64,000 nucleotides of DNA from a virus (IMGVR_UViG_3300022220_000003:29467-93466); one strand, 5' to 3'. Numbered from the stretch's first letter, positions 112-28,396 are shown. The notes: generated from the letters alone by a model not told the origin. A program made the numbers and translations.

Positions 112-140
112 TGGCATTGGTGTTGCATACTAAGTATGCA
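112..140 (+). promoter_or_regulatory. sigma54-type promoter fused to the palindrome TGCATAC-TAA-GTATGCA
   Basis: TGGCAT-TGGTG-TTGCA matches the -24/-12 consensus with exact GG-N10-GC spacing. Confidence 0.75.
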
Positions 141-241
141 GTTAACGCAGTCGAGCAGCACATGGGACGGCGTTGGCAACCGACACGGGCCGAGAGCGGG
201 GCCGGACTGAGACAACCAACCCAAACCCAAAGGACACCACC

Positions 242-1493: not shown

Positions 1494-1765
1494 CGGTAGG
1501 GTAGGCCGCGGGCCTTATTGATGGCCCGAGTTGCGAGCCTACGCAATTGGGATCCTAGGTGATAATAGTTGTTGACCGATCCGGCCTCGCGATACCGCTG
1601 GCCCCGATCGGAGATCCGCAACACGAGGGCGCCGGTGGTGTGCACATAAATGTGCCCGTCAAAGGCCTCAACAACGCGATATTCTTGGCCCCTCGCGTTG
1701 AACGTGGCCGAGGCGGTAAAGAGGGGAAGTTGAGCAAAGTTGGTGTCTGTGTTCGTTGTGGTCAT
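1490..1765 (-). CDS. Hypothetical early protein, probably leaderless
   Basis: ATG overlaps the end of the promoter palindrome. Confidence 0.7.
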   Translation of the reverse strand: MTTTNTDTNFAQLPLFTASATFNARGQEYRVVEAFDGHIYVHTTGALVLRISDRGQRYREAGSVNNYYHLGSQLRRLATRAINKARGLPYR

Positions 1766-1793
1766 GCATACTTAGTATGCAACACCGGTGCCA
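1765..1793 (-). promoter_or_regulatory. sigma54-type promoter plus palindrome
   Basis: Minus strand reads TGGCAC-CGGTG-TTGCATACTAAGTATGC-ATG. Confidence 0.8.
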
Positions 1794-1850
1794 GGTTTTC
1801 TGAGGTATTGGGGCCGTATTGGGGTGATACCGGTATGATACCACGCCTAA

Positions 1851-1863
1851 AATCAAGCACTTG
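1851..1863 (+). promoter_or_regulatory. IHF-binding site
   Basis: AATCAAGCACTTG is an exact WATCAANNNNTTR match, lying between upstream boxes and promoter. Confidence 0.6.
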
Positions 1864-1904
1864 CGGCCGGCGGGAGAGCTCGGAGGTGTGTGGGTGCAAT
1901 ACCT

Positions 1905-2058
1905 CTATGACTTAGGTGTCATAGTTGTACTTGGTTGATATTACTAGGGAAACCGGTGATTTTACGTATTTACTATGACATTAAAGTCATAGGCTACTTG
2001 GTTGTTTTTGTTGAGCAAAGGGCGTTTTCGGTGGTTTGCTATGACATAAATGTCAGGG
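1905..2058. promoter_or_regulatory. Three CTATGAC-N6-GTCATAG boxes (1905-1924, 1973-1992, degenerate 2039-2058)
   Basis: Palindromic boxes at 68 and 66 bp spacing between divergent promoters. Confidence 0.75.
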
Positions 2059-2118
2059 TTGGTTATTGGGCCGTTGGCTTCGAGCCTAGTTTATCGGGTG
2101 TTTGCGGGCCTGGCAAGT

Positions 2119-2147
2119 TGGCACCGGTGTTGCATACTAAGTATGCA
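2119..2147 (+). promoter_or_regulatory. sigma54-type promoter plus palindrome
   Basis: TGGCAC-CGGTG-TTGCATACTAAGTATGC-ATG, identical to the 1765-1793 copy. Confidence 0.8.
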
Positions 2148-4039: not shown

Positions 4040-4055
4040 TGGCCCGCGGATTGCA
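4040..4055 (+). promoter_or_regulatory. sigma54-type promoter of the Fis-HTH gene
   Basis: TGGCCC-GCGGA-TTGCA; ATG 4068 lies 14 nt after the -12 C, the same offset as at 2147 and 7297. Confidence 0.6.
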
Positions 4056-4067
4056 AGGAGATCGGAT

Positions 4068-4310
4068 ATGACGAAAAAGGTATCCAAAACCACCCGAAAT
4101 GGCCATTTACTTGGACGGTTAGTCCGTGACGCGGAAAAGGCCATTATTATCCAATACATAGCCAAGCATCGCGGAAACAAGACCCACGCGGCCGAGGCCC
4201 TCGGGGTGACGCACCGGCATTTGCAGCGGCGGTGCGTGGCGCTCGGTATCGAGGGGGCGGACCTCGAGGGCGGCAACGTGGGTGTTGTAATCGTGGGCGG
4301 GCTTGTGTAG
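4068..4310 (+). CDS. Stand-alone Fis-family (HTH_8) DNA-binding protein
   Basis: AEKAIIIQYIAKHRGNKTHAAEALGVTHRHLQRR fits the E..xI..aL....GN...AA..LG..R.tL pattern of Fis/NtrC C-terminal domains. Confidence 0.85.
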   Translation: MTKKVSKTTRNGHLLGRLVRDAEKAIIIQYIAKHRGNKTHAAEALGVTHRHLQRRCVALGIEGADLEGGNVGVVIVGGLV

Positions 4311-4844: not shown

Positions 4845-4945
4845 ATGAAAAAGTCCAATGATTCCAAGAGGTAACGCCATTTGGGGGTGCTGGTGGGGGT
4901 TTGGGCTTAAATAATGTGGGCGGTCTAGTTTGGCGCGGAGCCCGG

Positions 4946-5326
4946 TTAATCCTGTTGGTTGCGGTCGCGGTCTCGGTCTAGGTCGCGGTCGCGGTCGCGG
5001 TCGTTTGGTCTCGATTTGTTCCGTATCCGGGCCAGGAGTGGTCCGGTCTCGTTTTCGGGCGGGGTTTCGAGCGGTGGGAGGTGGTCTCGTATGCCCGGGC
5101 GCCTTGGGCCACTGTAGCGGCCGGTATTCATGCGTTCAAATGGCCAAATCGAGTAGGCCTGGCCCGTGTCGGACTCGGCGAGGTCTGGGGTTACTTTCTC
5201 GAGGGTGTGGGGCCTCGTTTTGCACTGGCATACCGGGCAACGGATCTTGGTGGTCACGAGGTGGCACCGGTGGCACGTAGGGGCCGTGAAATAGGATCCG
5301 ATCGTGGTGTTGACGGGGCTCGGCAT
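4946..5326 (-). CDS. Zn-ribbon protein with an Asp-Arg repeat tail
   Basis: CHRC...CPVC; GAGGTG RBS; tail DRDRDRDLDRDRDR encoded by a 6-bp repeat at about 4961-5003. Confidence 0.6.
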   Translation of the reverse strand: MPSPVNTTIGSYFTAPTCHRCHLVTTKIRCPVCQCKTRPHTLEKVTPDLAESDTGQAYSIWPFERMNTGRYSGPRRPGIRDHLPPLETPPENETGPLLARIRNKSRPNDRDRDRDLDRDRDRNQQD

Positions 5327-6003: not shown

Positions 6004-6085
6004 TGTGCACCATTTTGGAGCAGTTGGTGAGGGGTGTGCACCATTTTGGAGCAGGTGGGGTGAAATGTGCACCATTTTGGAGCAG
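6004..6085. repeat. Three 20-bp direct repeats at 31-bp period containing NtrC-like boxes
   Basis: tgtgcaccattttggagcag at 6004, 6035, 6066. Confidence 0.9.
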
Positions 6086-6736: not shown

Positions 6737-6868
6737 TCAGAGCACCACCGCGGCGGCGGCCTCGTTGCGGGCGGCGAGCTTGGGGCGGCGGGTGCCCTCG
6801 CCACCGACAACCAAGACCACAATCGCGACCACCGCGATAACTGCCTTGATTGTCTTGTTGCGTGTCAT
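6737..6868 (-). CDS. 43-aa membrane-anchored peptide, probably leaderless (not in the ORF track)
   Basis: MTRNKTIKAVIAVVAIVVLVVGGEGTRRPKLAARNEAAAAVVL; ATG at the promoter palindrome. Confidence 0.6.
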   Translation of the reverse strand: MTRNKTIKAVIAVVAIVVLVVGGEGTRRPKLAARNEAAAAVVL

Positions 6869-6896
6869 GCATACTTAGTATACAACAACCGTGCCA
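6868..6896 (-). promoter_or_regulatory. sigma54-type promoter plus palindrome (variant -12 TTGT)
   Basis: Minus strand TGGCAC-GGTTG-TTGTATACTAAGTATGC-ATG. Confidence 0.65.
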
Positions 6897-7018: not shown

Positions 7019-7194
7019 CTATGACTTAGGTGTCATAGTTGAGATTAGGGGCTAACTACTCGTAATGAGGGCGAAAATGCCAATTGGTACTAGACTACTA
7101 TGGCAATCATGTCATAGTTGAGGATTGGGCTAACTGCACGTAATAGCGAAAGAATCCTAGGTTAGACCGATTTACTATGGCATCTATGTCATAG
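7019..7194. promoter_or_regulatory. Three CTATGRC-N6-GTCATAG boxes (7019-7038, 7098-7117, 7175-7194)
   Basis: 79 and 77 bp spacing; 7011-7041 is identical to 1897-1927. Confidence 0.75.
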
Positions 7195-7268: not shown

Positions 7269-7297
7269 TGGCATCAGGGTTGCATACTAAGTATGCA
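7269..7297 (+). promoter_or_regulatory. sigma54-type promoter plus palindrome
   Basis: TGGCAT-CAGGG-TTGCATACTAAGTATGC-ATG. Confidence 0.8.
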
Positions 7298-7668
7298 TGA
7301 GCACAACGAGAGGAAACGAGACAATGAACGCAATCACCACCGAGATCAAGTTTGCCAAGGCTGAGATGGCCGCGATTAACTTCCAAGGTGCAGGCCCCGA
7401 GCTTGGACGACGTTTTTGTCACCTCCGCCGGTTGGTTAAGCTGCTCAAGGAGCTCGATCGGCTCAACGGGTTGGGACTCGCCGAGCTCGTCACGGTTGAA
7501 TACGAGTCCGAGGACGTCCCTAGCACATGTGTTGTTTTTTGGGCGAACACTGATGCCACGGCCGATATCGTGGGCAAACGCTCGGGCCAAGAAGTTGCGC
7601 GGCTTTCATCGCGTGAATTCTTTATCGAGCTCTCGTTGGCCCCCGGGCGTATGCCTGGTTTCTTTTAG
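7297..7668 (+). CDS. Hypothetical early protein, paralog of 242..592 (alternative start 7324)
   Basis: Shared VEYESEDVP motif. Confidence 0.7.
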   Translation: MSTTRGNETMNAITTEIKFAKAEMAAINFQGAGPELGRRFCHLRRLVKLLKELDRLNGLGLAELVTVEYESEDVPSTCVVFWANTDATADIVGKRSGQEVARLSSREFFIELSLAPGRMPGFF

Positions 7669-7980
7669 GCCAGCCAAACCCCAACGGCCGAGACTGCACA
7701 AAAGTGGCCGTTGGCCTCGGAGGGGCTCGAGGGATCTCCAGGGGTTGCGGCGAGAGCTGCGGGCCGATCACAGGACGTCAACAGCCACTTTCCTCGAGCT
7801 CTGGCGCGGGAGCTGAGCTCGGCGAGCTCTGGGGAGGTAAGCGCGGGGGATCTTTTGTCCCACACCCCCCACTGGCAAAAAAACTGCGAAAATAGTTTTT
7901 TCCGAGGTACTGGCTCCCCCACCCACAAAACGCGACCAAAACCCACCCCCACTTATGTATACTTAGTGTACACACCATAG

Positions 7981-8130
7981 GGCCACCACCTGGTCACCTG
8001 GCACACCACCTGGTCGCCTGGCACACCACCTGGTCACCTGGCACACCACCTGGTCGCCTGGCACACCACCTGGTCACCTGGCACACCACCTGGTCGCCTG
8101 GCACACCACCTGGTCGCCTGGCACACCACC
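7981..8130. repeat. Tandem repeat, about 7.5 x 20 bp (gcacaccacctggtcRcctg), iteron-like
   Basis: Direct reading; R runs A,G,A,G,A,G,G. Confidence 0.95.
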
Positions 8131-8246
8131 GCCGCCACCGCCGCCTAGTCAACCTCACCGGACGATCGTGGGGCGGGCAAAAACAACAACTTTTGAAGGG
8201 AGGTCGCCAAGGGGGGCAAAAACAAGGTGCAGCGGTAAACCTAGTG

Positions 8247-15475: not shown

Positions 15476-15491
15476 TGGCACGTGCATTGCA
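15476..15491 (+). promoter_or_regulatory. sigma54-type promoter
   Basis: TGGCACGTGCATTGCA is a perfect TGGCACG-N4-TTGCA in an intergenic gap. Confidence 0.7.
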
Positions 15492-15552
15492 ACCTTATAA
15501 TAATCTCGCGCCGCGGTTTCCCCGCAACGCTCGAAACTGCGGGGGTGGGACC

Positions 15553-17523: not shown

Positions 17524-19310
17524 TCCACGTATCGCCGAGCCAACTGGCCACGTTTAGGGATTGCAAGCGCAAGTGGGCCTACGGGTACATTGACGGGATC
17601 AAGCTCCCGCCGAAAAAAGAGCAGGCCTTTGGCCTCGAAGGCCACAAACGCAACGAAATTTACCTCCGCCGAGCTAAGTTTGTGGGCGAGGACGATGTGG
17701 GCAAGGTATGCCAACAGGGAATCAAGCCCGGGTATATGCCCACACCAGCCCCGGACCTTTTGATTGAGGCCAAGCTTAAAATCCCGATCCTCAATAACCA
17801 AGCCAACATGATCGGGTATATCGATTGCGTGTTGCCACCGAGACAAGCGGGCGCCACCTCCACCTTGGCCGTGGTACACGATTGGAAGTTTACCAAGGAT
17901 CTTCGGTGGGCCATGACCCCCGCCGAGCTCTACAAGGACGATCAAGCGGCGGTCTATTCGTATTGGGCGCACAAAAAATACAATGCCCGCAAGGTGGTGG
18001 TGCGGTGGGTCTATTTTTGCGGCCGGATCAACGCCAAGTCTGAGGACGGCCGGCCCCGTACACCGCGGGGTGTCAAAAAGGTGGAGCTCACGTTTACCGC
18101 GGCCGAGATTGAGGCCAATTGGCAACGCGAGCTCGAGGTGGCCAAGCAAATCCTCGAGGTCAGAAACACCTACAAAAAGGCCGATGAGGTGCCCGGTAAC
18201 GAGCTCGTCTGTGATAAATACGGCGGGTGCGGGCACCGAGAGCGCTGCCCCCTAGGCAACGAGGTGAGCCTCGAAGGCCTGTTTAACCAGTGGGATCGAA
18301 CCCACACCCCTGAAAATTCGGAGGTAGAAAAAATGAGTCAAGAGGATGTGATGGCCAAGCTAAAGGCCCATACCGCAAGCCTACGCCAGCAACAACAGAC
18401 CGCCACCGAGACCGCGGCGGCCGAGACCGCGGGGCCGGCCCCCGAGGTTGCCCCAGCGGCCGAGGAGGCCCCGCCGGTGGCAAGTGAAGAAGAAGAAGGC
18501 ATCAAAAATTCGCCACCCCCGGCGGAGCCTCCCCCACAGAATACAGGGATCGAGCACGTGGCGCAGCTCCAAAAACAATCGGGTCAGGTCGACCCCGATC
18601 CCCCACCGGCGGAGCCGGCGGCCGAACAACAACCGGCCGAGGGCCCAAACCTATTGGCCTCCCTTCAAGCCCAAACCGGGGCCACCGGTATCAATCCTCC
18701 CGAGGCGGCCAAGGTGGTGGTGCCCAAGGCGGAGGTGGCCCTCGCCCCCACCGAGATCATCGAGCAACCCCCCGCCACCGAATTGGCCAAGATACCCCCC
18801 GCGGTCACCAAGGAAGACCTGGAAAAGCTCACCAACGGGGCACCGGAGGAGGTGACACAACTATTGTGTGCGGGATCAAAACTTGAGGAGGTCACCAAGG
18901 CCCCACCTGCGGTGATGGGTGAGGAGGCCAAGCCCGCCAAGGATAAGAAGTCCAAGACCACCAAACCCAAGGCGGTCAAGGTGCCATTTGTGGTCTGTAT
19001 CGATGCGGTGCCCTCCAAGCTCACCAACGGGGCCCTCGGGGAGGTGATCCACCTATCCGAGTTTGTGGAGCCGTTCACCAAGGCGATCGCGAAGGGCCAC
19101 CGCTGTGATGAGCACCCGCAAGGGGTGGACCATTGGAACCTGATTGAATTCAACAAGGGGATCTCGATCCTTGCCCACCACGTTGGATCCCACCTCGACA
19201 ACAAAGGGTTTTCGGGGGTGCTCGTGGTGGATTCCTACACCGCCGAGGGCCGGGCCCTCACCGATGTTCTGATCCGGCGGGCCGACGCCGTGTTTAGGGG
19301 GGTGCGATGA
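17520..19310 (+). CDS. PD-(D/E)xK (RecB/Cas4-like) exonuclease with a long Pro/Ala/Glu linker and C-terminal domain
   Basis: SPSQL...C; E...GYID...DWK; Q...Y; C-x5-C-x5-C. Confidence 0.85.
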   Translation: MIHVSPSQLATFRDCKRKWAYGYIDGIKLPPKKEQAFGLEGHKRNEIYLRRAKFVGEDDVGKVCQQGIKPGYMPTPAPDLLIEAKLKIPILNNQANMIGYIDCVLPPRQAGATSTLAVVHDWKFTKDLRWAMTPAELYKDDQAAVYSYWAHKKYNARKVVVRWVYFCGRINAKSEDGRPRTPRGVKKVELTFTAAEIEANWQRELEVAKQILEVRNTYKKADEVPGNELVCDKYGGCGHRERCPLGNEVSLEGLFNQWDRTHTPENSEVEKMSQEDVMAKLKAHTASLRQQQQTATETAAAETAGPAPEVAPAAEEAPPVASEEEEGIKNSPPPAEPPPQNTGIEHVAQLQKQSGQVDPDPPPAEPAAEQQPAEGPNLLASLQAQTGATGINPPEAAKVVVPKAEVALAPTEIIEQPPATELAKIPPAVTKEDLEKLTNGAPEEVTQLLCAGSKLEEVTKAPPAVMGEEAKPAKDKKSKTTKPKAVKVPFVVCIDAVPSKLTNGALGEVIHLSEFVEPFTKAIAKGHRCDEHPQGVDHWNLIEFNKGISILAHHVGSHLDNKGFSGVLVVDSYTAEGRALTDVLIRRADAVFRGVR

Positions 19311-19394: not shown

Positions 19395-21113
19395 ATGGGC
19401 GAGGCCTTCAACAAAGCATTGGGACTCCTTGGAGTGGACAGGGTGATCCCACAATCAACCCTCGGGCGCCTTTTGCGGGAGTCGGGACCGCAGAAAACAA
19501 CCGAGTTCCGGCGGATCCACAACCTACCGCGGCGGGAGTGGGAGACCGATCCGACGGTCGCGGAGCTAACACGGTTGTTGACGATCCACCTAAGGACCGC
19601 CAATGGAAGCATGGAATTGTGGGCCATACAAGCGGCCGGTTTGCGTGAGATCTACGAGGTGGGGGGCCTATTTGGCCCCATGGCTGTATCGGCCGGCAAA
19701 ACCCTGATCACGCTATTAGCCCCGGTGTTGCTCGAGGCCGAGCGCCCCCTGCTCGTGGTGCCCGCGGCCTTGCGCGAACAGACGAACCGGTTTGTGATCC
19801 CCGCCATGGCCGAGCATTGGCGGTTGCACCCAAGCCTGACGATCGTTGGTTATACCGAGCTATCCTTGGAGAAAAACGCCATGTTTCTCGTGAAACACCG
19901 GCCGGATCTCATCATTGCTGACGAGTGCCACCGCCTCAAAAACAAGCAGGCGGGCCGTACCAAGCGGTTTATCCGGTACATGCGGGAATACCCCGAGACC
20001 CGGTTCGTTGCCCTCTCGGGTACGGTAACCAACCGATCGATCAAAGACTACGCCCACATATTGCGGTGGTGCCTCGGTGAGCGCACCCCCTTGCCCGAGT
20101 CATGGCGGGAGCTCTCACAATGGGCCGATGCCCTAGACGTGCTCAAACCCGGGGAGGAACCGAGCCCGGCGGGAGCTCTCGAGGCGTGGGCGGTGGAGGG
20201 CAACGTACGCCACGGTTATCGGGATCGGTTGGTCCAGACCCCCGGGGTGATCGCCACCAAGGAGGGCGAGCTCGGGGTTAGCCTGCAAATCCTCAACCGG
20301 CGGCCGGCGGTGCCCGATCACGTGGCCGGGTTAATCAACACCATGCGCAACAAATGGGTGACGCCCTACGGGGAGGAGATCACCGAGGCGGTGGAGCTCT
20401 GGCGCCACGTGCGAGAGCTCGCGTGTGGATTCTACTATAGGTGGGAGCCACCGCCCCCGATCGAGTGGCTCTTGGCCCGCAAGGGGTGGAAAACCTACGT
20501 TCGCAACACCCTCCTACACAACCGCCGAAACCTAGACACCGAATTGCAGGTTTGGAACGAGGCGGCCGGGGCCAAGCGTCCCCCCGAGGAGTGGGTTAAG
20601 TGGGAGGCTATCAAGCATACCTACGAGCCCAACACCGTGGCCGAGTGGGTGAGCGATTACGCCATTGCAGACGCAACCGAGTGGTTCGAGGAGGTGGGCG
20701 GGATCGTTTGGACCGAGCACCGGGTTTTTGGGACCGAGCTCGCCATGGTCTCGGGGTATCCCTACTTCGGAGCCGGCCCAAAGGCCAACGTGGGGATCCT
20801 CGAGCACAAGGGCCCGTGCATAGCCTCGATCCGGGCCCATTCCGAGGGAAAAAACTTGCAACACCACCACCATGCCAATTTAATAGTCGCACCACCGAGC
20901 TCTGGAAAGACGTGGGAACAGCTCCTCGGCCGTACCCACCGCCATGGCCAACAGGCTGAGGAGGTGACCGCCGAGGTATATACCCAAGTGCCCGAGCTCG
21001 TGGCTAGTTTTCGCCAAGCCGTGCGGGATGCTCGGTATCTCGAGCACACCCTCGGCAGCCGACAAAAATTACTATACGCGGACATTGCGTTTGACTACTC
21101 GGGGGCCATATGA
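19395..21113 (+). CDS. SF2 (SNF2-like) helicase
   Basis: SAGKT, IIADECH, ALSGT, QLLGRTHRHGQ. Confidence 0.9.
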   Translation: MGEAFNKALGLLGVDRVIPQSTLGRLLRESGPQKTTEFRRIHNLPRREWETDPTVAELTRLLTIHLRTANGSMELWAIQAAGLREIYEVGGLFGPMAVSAGKTLITLLAPVLLEAERPLLVVPAALREQTNRFVIPAMAEHWRLHPSLTIVGYTELSLEKNAMFLVKHRPDLIIADECHRLKNKQAGRTKRFIRYMREYPETRFVALSGTVTNRSIKDYAHILRWCLGERTPLPESWRELSQWADALDVLKPGEEPSPAGALEAWAVEGNVRHGYRDRLVQTPGVIATKEGELGVSLQILNRRPAVPDHVAGLINTMRNKWVTPYGEEITEAVELWRHVRELACGFYYRWEPPPPIEWLLARKGWKTYVRNTLLHNRRNLDTELQVWNEAAGAKRPPEEWVKWEAIKHTYEPNTVAEWVSDYAIADATEWFEEVGGIVWTEHRVFGTELAMVSGYPYFGAGPKANVGILEHKGPCIASIRAHSEGKNLQHHHHANLIVAPPSSGKTWEQLLGRTHRHGQQAEEVTAEVYTQVPELVASFRQAVRDARYLEHTLGSRQKLLYADIAFDYSGAI

Positions 21114-26187: not shown

Positions 26188-26487
26188 ATGGGCAGCAGCA
26201 CAAGCAGAGTTATGCGGGGCGCGTTCGTTGGGACGGGCGCTGATATCGACATTGAAACCGTAGGTTTTAGGCCGCGATCGGTTCACCTGATCAATCAAGA
26301 CTCGGCCGACGAAATGTGGTGGCATAGCCACATGGCCGACGCCTCCGCGTTCAAACGGGTGACGGCGGGCACGGGATCAATTATCACGACGTTGGGGATC
26401 ACGCCCTTGGCGGCCGGTTTCACATTGGGCGCCGATACCGATCTGAATGTGGACGGTGAGACCGTGCTTTGGGAGGCCACCGAATAG
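26188..26487 (+). CDS. Small virion-type beta protein
   Basis: AGGAG RBS; Gly/Thr-rich. Confidence 0.65.
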   Translation: MGSSTSRVMRGAFVGTGADIDIETVGFRPRSVHLINQDSADEMWWHSHMADASAFKRVTAGTGSIITTLGITPLAAGFTLGADTDLNVDGETVLWEATE

Positions 26488-26929: not shown

Positions 26930-28396
26930 ATGCCCGAGCCGATCCCAATGCTCCCCAGCGGTGACGCCTTGGCCGACGCCGGGCGGGATGCATTGATCGA
27001 CTATTACGACCATTGCAAATCGATGGCCGGCGAGTGGGTCTATCGCCAGGTGGTGGATAACTGCCGGGCGGATATCTTGGCGGCGATCCTCGGGTATGAG
27101 GTGCAGCCGTTTCATTTGGCCCTGATGGTGTTTCAAATGCTGCACCCCGACAATTTGCAGCTCTGTTTTCGGGGTGCAGGCAAAACCACCGTTTGCACGG
27201 TGACCCGGGCGATCTTTATGCTGATCCGCAACCGGGACTTGCGGATCCTCATAGCCTCGAAAACCAAGGGCAACGCCGAGAGCATGCTCAAGGAGATCAA
27301 GGGACACCTCGAGGAAAACCAGCGACTGATCGAGGTCTTTGGGTTGTTTTACGATCCGGCGGTGGTGACCAAATGGGATAACACCGAGATCGAGATCCTC
27401 GGGCGCAGCCGCAAGACCAAAGAGAGCTCGATCATAGCAATCGGTGTTTCGGGTGCCTTGGCCTCCAAACACGTTGACGTGATCTTGGCCGATGACTTGG
27501 TGGACGAAGAAAACGCCCGTACCAAGTATATGCGAGACCGCGTCAAGCAGTGGTATTATCAGATCTTGGATCCGGTCCTCGAGCCACCCGAGCCCGGGTT
27601 TTTGCACCGCGGTGAGTTTCACCGGTTGGGGACCAGATATCATTTTGATGACCTATACGGGCATCTGATGTCGAATGAGCTCAAGGAGCACCACCAAGTG
27701 ATCCCCGCGCTCGACTCAAACGAGCGCAGCCCGTGGCCCGAAAAATTTCCGCCCGATTGGTTCAAAGCCAAAAAGGAAAAATCAGGTACGATTATATTCA
27801 ACGCTCAATACCAGTGCGATACCGAGGCAATGAAGGGCGAGATCTTCCAATATGACGATTGCCAACAGGTTTCGGCTGACGACGTGCCCGCGGGTCTCAA
27901 GGTCTACATGGGTGTTGACTTGGCGATCACCGAGCAGGAACAAAACGACATGTTTTGCATAGTGGTGGGAGGTCTAGACCAGGCCGAAAACTGGTATGTG
28001 ATTGACTATTTCGAGGGCCACCTCCGATTTGCAGCCCAAACCGCGGCGATCAAGCGCTACTACAAAAAACACGATCCTATCCGGGCGGCCATTGAGACCA
28101 ATAGCTACCAGGCGGCCCAATACCAGACCCTCAAAGATGAGGATCAGAGCTTGCGGCTTATGCCGGTGCACACCGAGAAAGACAAGATCACCAGAGCTTG
28201 GAAGGTCTCACCGAGGTTTGAAAATAAGCAGATGTTTTTCGTCAAGGGGGGCAATATCCACAAGCTGATCGAGGCGATCGTTTTATTCCCCTCGCATCGA
28301 TACAAGGACCCGTTTGACGCCTTGGACATGATGCTCAGGGCCAGCAAAGTGCGTCGACGCCGCAAGCGGCGACAACGTGAACCGGGGATCATCTGA
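26930..28396 (+). CDS. terL: Terminase large subunit
   Basis: RGAGKTT, ILADDLVD, GTRYH.DD, nuclease GVDLA...D..DA. Confidence 0.95.
   Translation: MPEPIPMLPSGDALADAGRDALIDYYDHCKSMAGEWVYRQVVDNCRADILAAILGYEVQPFHLALMVFQMLHPDNLQLCFRGAGKTTVCTVTRAIFMLIRNRDLRILIASKTKGNAESMLKEIKGHLEENQRLIEVFGLFYDPAVVTKWDNTEIEILGRSRKTKESSIIAIGVSGALASKHVDVILADDLVDEENARTKYMRDRVKQWYYQILDPVLEPPEPGFLHRGEFHRLGTRYHFDDLYGHLMSNELKEHHQVIPALDSNERSPWPEKFPPDWFKAKKEKSGTIIFNAQYQCDTEAMKGEIFQYDDCQQVSADDVPAGLKVYMGVDLAITEQEQNDMFCIVVGGLDQAENWYVIDYFEGHLRFAAQTAAIKRYYKKHDPIRAAIETNSYQAAQYQTLKDEDQSLRLMPVHTEKDKITRAWKVSPRFENKQMFFVKGGNIHKLIEAIVLFPSHRYKDPFDALDMMLRASKVRRRRKRRQREPGII

Follow-up and report, generated by a model that had tools for sequence, protein, structure and literature searches.

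A 17-bp palindrome fused to predicted sigma-54-type promoters of a phage, as a candidate operator beside predicted near-leaderless starts

Introduction

Promoters recognised by sigma-54 are normally controlled solely from afar, by ATPase activators whose upstream sites lie about 80-200 bp from the promoter, and repressors bound to the promoter core are rare. In enteric bacteria, NtrC represses glnAp1 and glnL by binding over the promoter at NtrC boxes, which are 17-bp sites of the form TGCACC-N5-GGTGCA with a TGCA-N9-TGCA frame. The early promoters of phage N4 carry a hairpin, with a stem of 5-7 bp and a 3-nt loop, that is read by the virion RNA polymerase (RNAP), while the cI message that phage lambda makes from PRM is leaderless. 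Sigma-54-type promoters have been ascribed to Pseudomonas phage YuA (Ceyssens et al. 2008, as cited in PMC10914365), and E. coli has a class of 5'-uAUG mRNAs, in which a 5'-terminal AUG is accompanied by a downstream Shine-Dalgarno (SD) sequence (PMC4965119). Sigma-54 boxes in phages and leaderless layouts are both already known in the literature; what is new at the locus described here is a dyad fused to the promoter, together with a candidate repressor that consists of a DNA-binding domain only.

The locus lies in IMGVR_UViG_3300022220_000003, an IMG/VR virus record of 93,466 bp with an estimated completeness of 92%, of which bases 29467-93466 were analysed as one 64,000-bp stretch, here called the window; positions refer to the window unless given as genome positions. 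A preliminary description had drawn attention to a 17-bp palindrome over the melting region of its promoters, and had offered both an extrudable hairpin and a repressor operator as explanations. The recurrence of this 17-mer is real and non-random, and its most likely function would be that of an operator that overlies the cores of sigma-54-type promoters and is bound by a Fis/NtrC-type DNA-binding domain of the phage.

Results

Gene content and possible host of the phage

The phage, which is uncultured and has a GC content of 58.5% over the whole record, has the gene set of a siphophage, including a tape measure, family-A DNA polymerase, primase-helicase, helicase and PD-(D/E)XK nuclease; its large ORFs encode the primase-helicase, DNA polymerase, tape measure and tail proteins. 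It also encodes a tyrosine integrase (a 204-aa integrase-family protein), a ParA-like ATPase, a thymidylate kinase, a DNA methylase, a radical-SAM protein, a holin-like protein, and a lysin that combines PG binding at its N-terminus with an M15 domain at its C-terminus. Genes for sigma-54 (PF04552), an EBP ATPase (PF00158), a sigma-70-family factor or a T7-type RNAP were absent from the phage, as were matches to PF00940, for which the control genomes likewise gave none, and Rfam had no match across genome 20-40 kb.

Three sediment metagenome runs each contain most of the stretch and six more sediment and estuary runs only small shares, and no RNA runs are listed as containing it. The contigs of four DNA runs showed nothing beyond this phage, at low depth, and cross-mapped paralogous cassettes, and no natural variation was seen. 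No close relative emerged from near and protein searches of the phage collection, in which the best matches are 25-55% identical and come from many host groups, and two scans of 185,579 species genomes, one with an alignment of the primase and one with that of the D-R protein family described below, found no prophage relative. A single related viral contig, at ~70% nucleotide identity, lacks precisely the region of the cassettes and has no palindrome that recurs.

Full-length matches to the DUF6011 protein are best in phages of Brevundimonas, Caulobacter and Sinorhizobium, those to the M15 domain come from Rhizobium phages, and the order of the lysin domains, PG-binding first and catalytic last, is that seen in Gram-negative phages. 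Together with EBP-type HTH_8 domains, these are weak hints that the host may be Gram-negative, and possibly alphaproteobacterial. Some structural proteins resemble those of actinophages.

Ten predicted promoter arms at the ends of five divergent cassettes

The motif TGCATAC-TWA-GTATGCA occurs ten times in the whole record, in copies at genome 24982, 25317, 27485, 27842, 29235, 29590, 31231, 31597, 36334 and 36747. Five of these, and one degenerate copy, lie in the window, in which 0.06 would be expected by chance. Their placement, from -14 to +3 of all five main window promoters by sigma-54 numbering, is as first described, and each lies at a fixed spacing from a -24/-12-type box. The exact sequence TGCATACTAAGTATGCA stands at 124-140 (+), 1765-1781 (-), 2131-2147 (+) and 7281-7297 (+), and a motif search recovered both the single mismatch previously reported in the copy at 6868-6884 (-) and the degenerate sixth copy at 7956-7972 (-), which has three.

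The 17-mers are the outward ends of five homologous divergent cassettes, A to E, of 352-430 bp each. Every cassette is flanked by inverted repeats of 29 bp or longer, and the polarity of cassette A is opposite to that of B-D. An unbiased genome search for perfect palindromes with 7-bp arms found two recurring families only, the 17-mer and CTATGAC-N6-GTCATAG; the latter occupies the centre of the cassettes, with three copies in each, 15 in total, and none elsewhere in the genome. This anatomy, which was read directly from the sequence, comprises the following features in the window.

112-140, + strand: predicted promoter arm C-R, TGGCAT-N5-TTGCA fused to the palindrome at 124-140; no ATG at its end, and a leader of ~100 nt to an SD-led ATG at 242
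1490-1765, - strand: D-L ORF, 91 aa, with no SD and no other early start; an ORFan with an only moderate coding score
1765-1793, - strand: predicted promoter arm D-L, -24/-12 box plus the palindrome at 1765-1781, which ends in the A that begins the ATG of the 91-aa ORF
1905-1924, 1973-1992 and 2039-2058, no strand: the three central palindromes of cassette D, with centre spacings of 68 and 66 bp
2119-2147, + strand: predicted promoter arm D-R, TGGCAC-N5-TTGCA plus the palindrome at 2131-2147; the ATG at 2147 is the sole possible start of the 216-aa gene
2147-2797, + strand: D-R gene, 216 aa, with the strongest coding signal of the early region; an in-frame TAA (the loop) lies 9 nt 5'
4040-4055, + strand: eleventh sigma-54-type box, non-homologous and without palindrome, TGGCCC-N5-TTGCA; the ATG at 4068 is at an arm-like distance from the -12 C
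4068-4310, + strand: gene that closes the D-R operon and encodes an 80-aa stand-alone HTH_8 (Fis/NtrC-type) protein, the candidate operator binder
6737-6868, - strand: E-L ORF, 43 aa, hydrophobic and membrane-type, with a high per-codon coding score
6868-6896, - strand: predicted promoter arm E-L, palindrome with C3>T, which also changes the -12 GC to GT; ATG at 6868
7019-7038, 7098-7117 and 7175-7194, no strand: the three central palindromes of cassette E
7269-7297, + strand: predicted promoter arm E-R, box plus the palindrome at 7281-7297; the ATG at 7297 shares its frame with one at 7324 that an SD precedes
7297-7668, + strand: E-R gene, of 123 aa if read from the palindrome's ATG and 114 aa if read from the one led by an SD; database calls have the 114-aa form
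7956-7984, - strand: degenerate eleventh arm, probably decayed, TGTACAC-TAA-GTATACA behind GGCCC-N..-TGTG, adjoining 20-bp tandem repeats

Every copy of the 17-mer is preceded at fixed spacing by TGGCAY-N5-(T/G)TGCA, with the C of the GC placed at -12, and canonical sigma-54 spacing then predicts a start site at the G two bases 5' of the palindrome's final A. Eight of the ten arms match TGGCAC-N5-TTGCW in full, with the GG and GC doublets at a distance of exactly 10 bp; the departures are AG for the -24 GG in C-L, GT for the -12 GC in E-L, and GTGCA in both B-L and B-R. The same GG-N10-GC spacing recurs in two non-homologous box families: TGGCCC-N5-TTGCA at 4040, before the HTH_8 gene, and GGCACG-N4-TTGCAACCTTAT at window 15476 and genome 23872 and 26423, of which the copy at window 15476 is kept in the sole related contig. 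Furthermore, the central dyads are centred ~97-281 bp 5' of the outward start sites, in enhancer-like positions. No sigma-70-like site is positioned to serve the outward genes; weak, inward-facing matches lie in right-type arms. Since the phage has no sigma factor, EBP or T7-type RNAP genes of its own either, the arms are very probably host sigma-54-type promoters; both this usage of sigma-54 and the start site are what we infer.

The alternative, that the arms are read by an unrecognised phage factor or another sigma factor, or that transcription starts further upstream and the palindrome forms an RNA hairpin before the AUG, is improbable. Both the weak inward-facing matches and the actinophage-like structural proteins would suit such a reading, as Actinobacteria favour leaderless mRNAs and, to our knowledge, lack sigma-54. 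However, an 11-position sigma-54 consensus within a 35-bp element has a probability of ~1e-5 by chance, and its exact spacing is shared by two unrelated box families. The EBP-type HTH_8 domains, the lysin domain order, as in Gram-negative phages, and two accessory proteins that best match alphaproteobacterial phages also argue against it, as does the failure to find a sigma or RNAP gene in the phage.

Constraint on the palindrome

Across the ten arms, only 3 of the 170 positions in the 17-mer deviate from the majority base (1/70 in the left arm, 1/30 in the loop and 1/70 in the right arm). Outside the dyad, the corresponding counts are 2/50 in TGGCA, 18/60 in the spacer between the -24 and -12 elements, and 96/200 and 85/200 in the upstream and downstream flanks (~45%). 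This pattern of conservation was observed directly, with the ten arms, being paralogues, counting as a single invention retained ten times. Eight of the ten copies are perfect 7-3-7 dyads and two have one substitution each, and the chance that the right arm would be complementary to a fixed left arm, giving a perfect 7-bp dyad, is ~6e-5. The right arm (-4 to +3), which has no known part in recognition by sigma-54, varies no more than the -12 box does; hence, on these counts, the constraint on the 17-mer exceeds what sigma-54 recognition accounts for.

Constraint of this kind might arise with no separate ligand, were the block following -12 an optimal melting and initially transcribed sequence combined with an ATG context, homogenised by gene conversion, such that the dyad was merely a by-product. 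The core, ATACTAAGTAT, ranks within the 0.14% of genome 11-mers that are least stable, and is extremely AT-rich for a genome of 58.5% GC; the arms are paralogous, and the inversion of cassette A relative to B-D means that exchange between arms has occurred; and the conserved CA-rich codons following the ATG fit enhancers of leaderless translation (PMC9031893). We nevertheless consider this explanation unlikely, as conversion would homogenise the spacer and flanks too, whereas these have diverged; a perfect dyad would arise so rarely by chance; and the ATG is dispensable, with the five arms that lack it at the dyad end reading CATAA or CAGT while retaining the palindrome. The AT-rich core probably eases melting, which does not explain the symmetry. 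Against the operator reading, part of the conservation could stem from gene conversion among paralogues, and the melting region would need an AT-rich core too.

There is a very slight chance that the identical inverted arms instead mark recombination boundaries, acting as crossover points that shuffle or invert gene modules, through either homologous exchange or the tyrosine recombinase of the phage. The long inverted repeats bounding each cassette, the reversed polarity of cassette A, the break in the related contig exactly at the cassette region, and the 204-aa integrase-family protein all suit this possibility. However, tyrosine-recombinase core sites have a spacer of 6-8 bp, for which the 3 bp in this dyad are too short, and the contigs of three other runs contained only the cross-mapping of paralogues, with no alternative junctions. 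A role in recombination would be compatible with one as an operator.

The exact sequence of the 17-mer has seven scattered single matches in IMG/VR, consistent with chance; a search of IMG/VR for a sigma-54 box followed by TGCA-N9-TGCATG returned 37 matches, 0 of which were palindromic inside; and the pattern of box plus 17-mer had one match in JGI metagenome contigs, which was unrelated and of 33% GC. Within the genome, looser look-alike sites (including genome 23869, 24100, 26420 and 18397) were barely above chance, with 6 found against 2.3 expected, and one of them is not conserved in the related contig, both of which count against the operator reading. IMG/VR scans with the D-R protein, the D-R family, the HTH_8 protein and the HTH_8 family yielded nothing useful.

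Some independent support comes from two distant homologues of the D-R protein (42-46% identical), which have been called with an N-terminal extension, ...FGTLVAYLVG-M. When the phage's own DNA 5' of the D-R ATG is read in the same frame, it gives ...VGTGVAY*VC-M, such that the common pattern is ...GT.VAY.V.M, with the shared G-T, V-A-Y and V corresponding to GGCAC, TTGCATAC and GTA at identical offsets. In the phage of these homologues the loop would read TTA or CTN instead of a stop codon, and position 14 is G. Hence, in this distant phage, the -24 box and left arm are retained, as are a portion of the right arm and the ATG, all at unchanged spacing.

The hairpin alternative

The first explanation in the preliminary description was that the palindrome extrudes under supercoiling, as a 7-bp stem with a 3-nt loop, and pre-opens the -12 fork junction, so that the sigma-54 polymerase needs little or no activator. 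If true, this would be a bypass through DNA structure in a class of promoters thought to be strictly enhancer-dependent, providing leaderless messages at once upon infection. The perfect 7-3-7 dyad is indeed centred on the melting region, where the core is least stable; the predicted fold is recovered for the single strand, with -4.7 kcal/mol (z = -3.4); and the phage has no activator gene. Yet the 17-bp duplex has a stacking energy of ~-20.2 kcal/mol, against -4.7 kcal/mol for each strand, so that extrusion would cost a net ~+11 kcal/mol, junction penalties not included. Natural variants also lose the fold without compensation, at 0 kcal/mol in B-R (G15>A) and -1.2 kcal/mol in E-L (C3>T), although the rest of the promoter and the downstream operon are kept. 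The loop is not of the unusually stable GNA type found in N4, and the three enhancer-like dyads present in every cassette would be redundant if activation were bypassed. Additionally, region I of wild-type sigma-54 bars the entry of DNA, and activator bypass on melted DNA requires this region to be deleted (review PMC5095919). Hence the cost of extrusion, the fold-losing variants, the retention of the enhancer-like dyads and the block by region I together make such a bypass highly improbable.

Candidate binding proteins

Two small stand-alone proteins pass the Pfam HTH_8 cut-off, one at window 3942/4068-4310 (E = 9e-10) and the other, of 85-102 aa, at genome 17809-18117(-) (E = 6.5e-9), domain identities that were observed directly. 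By sequence, the nearest solved relatives of the 80-aa protein at 4068-4310 are the C-terminal DNA-binding domains of ZraR, NtrC1, NtrC4 and NtrX, as well as Fis. A structural model of this protein (7 sequences, pLDDT 77) predicts a long helix followed by a helix-turn-helix; it can be superposed on Fis and, with deviations of 0.6-0.8 A across 47-48 residues, the long N-terminal helix included, on the domains of NtrC4 and NtrX. In Fis/NtrC-type DNA-binding domains, the long helices pair to form a dimer (PMC11407668). The recognition helix is invariant in six stand-alone homologues, 68-88% identical to the 80-aa protein, and one of these homologues and one of the D-R protein both come from 12,153-bp contigs, which suggests that they are encoded on the same one.

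The 4068 gene ends the operon that begins at 2131, with a terminator-like hairpin 3' of it, and its own box lacks the dyad, a layout that suits an autoregulated repressor, for which it is a candidate. Pfam and PHROG scans found no CI/Cro-type repressor among ~50 early ORFs. As there are three families of sites (the 17-mer, the 20-bp CTATGAC-N6-GTCATAG, and three TGCACCATTTTGGAGCA boxes) but only two HTH_8 proteins, any pairing of protein with site is tentative.

The second explanation originally offered, a repressor operator with the geometry of an NtrC box, fits best: the right arm is invariant although sigma-54 does not need it, a strict 7-3-7 dyad lies over the promoter core, and HTH_8 candidates are encoded by the phage. 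The dyad is of a size for a dimeric HTH protein, and overlaps the core and start of the promoter, from -14 to +3. The binder is a candidate, whose identity we infer from its domain and position. Tentatively, and stopping a little short of calling it probable, we interpret the 17-bp dyad as an operator for a dimeric phage protein, lying over the core of ten paralogous host-sigma-54-type early promoters.

An operator for a host protein would account for the dyad's symmetry and position in the same manner, whether its ligand were a repressor of the LexA type, which would couple early transcription to host stress, or an NtrC-family regulator of the host, acting through its DNA-binding domain. Borrowing of host LexA is known among temperate phages, the core TAC-N3-GTA is similar to the LexA box reported for Bdellovibrio, TTAC-N3-GTAA, and the phage repressor is only a candidate so far. 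This is nevertheless unlikely, as the phage itself encodes suitable DNA-binding proteins; the two scans of species genomes found no prophage relative; and the 17-mer had only scattered single matches in viral contigs, with the one metagenome match to the box plus 17-mer being unrelated.

Predicted leaderless and near-leaderless starts

As first described, the last A of the palindrome is the A of an ATG in four of the five window copies (1765, 2131, 6868 and 7281), as it is in five of the ten copies in the genome; the ORFs that these window ATGs open have 43-216 codons. Four classes can be distinguished among the ten arms. Firstly, D-L (1765), D-R (2131) and E-L (6868) have an ATG at the dyad end, with neither an SD nor an early alternative start. 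Secondly, A-L (genome 24982) and E-R (7281) combine the dyad-end ATG with an in-frame ATG, led by a good SD (AAGGA, AGAGGA), that is 24 nt downstream at genome 24982 and 27 nt downstream at 7281. Thirdly, A-R and C-L have CATAA in place of CATGA, with an SD-led ATG ~27 nt downstream. Fourthly, B-L, B-R and C-R (124) have a homologous leader of ~105 nt. The distance from the -12 C to the ATG is about 13-14 nt in all five ATG-bearing arms, and also at the unrelated 4040 box.

The evidence is clearest for D-R, in which the first 29 codons contain no other start, leaving the ATG as the only possible one for the 216-aa gene; these codons score as coding, with 81.2 from this ATG against 66.1 from the next candidate start, and the N-termini of homologues coincide with it. 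The dual-start form is also found in relatives (MTTSKGAET-M and MNATQNGAEI-M). A search of the ESM Atlas with the D-L and E-R proteins yielded nothing usable. The codons that follow the dyad-end ATG are CA-rich (ACC AAC ACG AAC ...), and such codons enhance leaderless translation, which is lowered by added 5' nucleotides (PMC9031893).

Since canonical sigma-54 spacing puts the start at the G two bases before the ATG, the transcripts of the ATG-bearing arms would have a predicted leader of 0-2 nt, rather than being strictly leaderless, and near-leaderless expression would be predicted for about half of the operons. Whether the exact start is the G at -2 or the A of the ATG matters, because extra 5' nucleotides weaken leaderless translation. 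Hence the proposal of leaderless, SD-independent starts is well supported by the sequence for three genes, at 1765, 2131 and 6868, and most of all for the 216-aa gene at 2147, whereas it is ambiguous for A-L and E-R (7281), owing to the in-frame SD-led ATG 24-27 nt downstream.

Discussion

If the 17-mer is an operator, its binder would be a dimeric phage DNA-binding protein, for which the two HTH_8 proteins are the best candidates, and the 80-aa product of 4068-4310 the first choice. The left half-site is the -12 TGCA needed by sigma-54, meaning the bound protein may either compete with the polymerase or block melting, and all ten divergent operons could be silenced together. The 4068 gene would be read from the palindrome-bearing promoter at 2131, generating negative feedback, from which its own sigma-54-type box, lacking a palindrome, may offer an escape. 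The integrase and ParA-like genes of the phage make it possible that this repression serves as a switch from early to later expression, or as immunity. The same promoter geometry would place the start 0-2 nt 5' of an ATG, which opens the gene in five of the ten arms, such that their messages would be leaderless or nearly so.

Such an operator would represent a compact negative layer of control, in which a single dyad reuses the -12 element as a half-site on ten promoters, and the reader is probably a phage protein that is the mere DNA-binding domain of the activator family. The natural variants of the arms, which differ in ending with ATG, ATA or no ATG, in having a downstream SD or none, and in their arm substitutions, constitute a testable set for the path from a sigma-54 start to leaderless translation. 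The parts, being small and orthogonal, could also become switchable sigma-54 promoters in synthetic circuits.

The phage shares individual elements of this arrangement with several described systems. Streptomyces phage phiC31, like the phage described here, has about ten copies of a single early promoter, in its case a non-canonical one, and a recurring perfect palindrome of similar size, there the 17-bp site of the c repressor; the phiC31 palindrome, CCTACTCACGTGAGTAGG, and early promoter, GGGTTGCCGACTCCCTTAC, were read directly from its sequence (AJ006589). The palindromes of phiC31, however, lie beside or apart from the promoters, and its repressor is large and unrelated. Judged by that sequence, the phiC31 early promoters are not sigma-54-like. 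The closer parallel in promoter class is YuA, which, according to the account cited above, likewise uses host sigma-54 boxes and does not encode its own sigma-54 or activator; that account does not describe a dyad fused to the -12 element. The early promoters of N4 have stems and loops of the same dimensions, in a hairpin near the start site, but they need a giant virion RNAP and SSB; no such polymerase was detected in this phage, where the predicted hairpin overlaps +1 and carries the -12 box. As in leaderless and 5'-uAUG mRNAs, an AUG, rather than a GUG, is at or next to the predicted 5' end and is followed by CA-rich codons, and two arms pair the 5' AUG with an in-frame SD-led AUG, as in the E. 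coli class (PMC4965119). In contrast to the known leaderless cases, in which sigma-70 promoters have a -10 box ~7 nt upstream, the fixed partner here is a sigma-54-type -12 box. Finally, as with NtrC at glnAp1 and glnL, the candidate arrangement is an HTH_8-type dimer on a 17-bp TGCA-N9-TGCA dyad that overlaps the promoter core. Yet the promoters blocked by NtrC are sigma-70 promoters, and NtrC is a full activator, with receiver and AAA+ domains, whereas in this phage the targets are of the sigma-54 type, the half-site is the -12 element itself, and the candidate repressor is a phage-encoded DNA-binding domain alone.

Shared leader and further promoter-like boxes

Three predicted transcripts, those from the right arm of cassette C and from both arms of cassette B, have one conserved, roughly 105-nt leader in common (genome coordinates refer to the whole record):

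Window 141-241, leader of the right arm of C
Genome 27384-27484, minus strand, leader of the left arm of B
Genome 27859-27962, plus strand, leader of the right arm of B

This leader is predicted to fold into two stem-loops, with compensatory changes in four pairs, and carries the ribosome site AAGGACACCAMC-ATG; it had no match in Rfam.

Alongside the main sigma-54-type box there is a second family, GGCACG-N4-TTGCAACCTTAT(T/A)AT:

Window 15476-15505, kept in the sole related contig
Genome 23872, minus strand
Genome 26423, minus strand

Each of the latter two points into the end of a plus-strand gene and overlaps a loose match to the 17-mer promoter dyad.

Host and lifestyle

Four features upstream of the window bear on the host and the phage's lifestyle:

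Genome 26299-26368, 70-nt tRNA-like sequence whose anticodon loop is abnormal (ARAGORN)
Genome 18133-18170, TTGGAG-N16-TATACT, then 6 nt, then the ATG of a 62-aa ORF
Genome 7583-8197, minus strand, short tyrosine integrase
Genome 20382-21026, plus strand, ParA-like ATPase

The tRNA-like sequence, which Rfam did not recognise, may have come from a host tRNA gene as the remnant of an attP site, and if so could identify the host. The second arrangement is a putative sigma-70-type leaderless layout, which suggests a host with a general tolerance for leaderless messages. A temperate lifestyle is probable for the phage, perhaps with a plasmid prophage as its maintenance form.

Repeats and NtrC-like boxes

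Three repeated elements lie within the window:

4933-5206, G- and T-rich simple repeat (GGTCGC repeats)
6004-6085, three NtrC-like boxes TGCACCATTTTGGAGCA, spaced by 31 bp
7985-8125, seven 20-bp tandem repeats ACCACCTGGTCRCCTGGCAC, directly upstream of the primase-helicase gene

The simple repeat has strong GC and AT skews, and in read mapping attracts piled-up contigs of many organisms. The tandem repeats look like iterons, and may mark a replication origin; the related contig begins at the equivalent place with a 31-bp tandem array, unlike ACCACCTGGTCRCCTGGCAC. The NtrC-like triplet, inside a stretch of about 1.5 kb without a convincing gene, is a candidate third site family for the phage's two stand-alone HTH_8 proteins, each box differing by one base from the NtrC consensus TGCACC-N5-GGTGCA.
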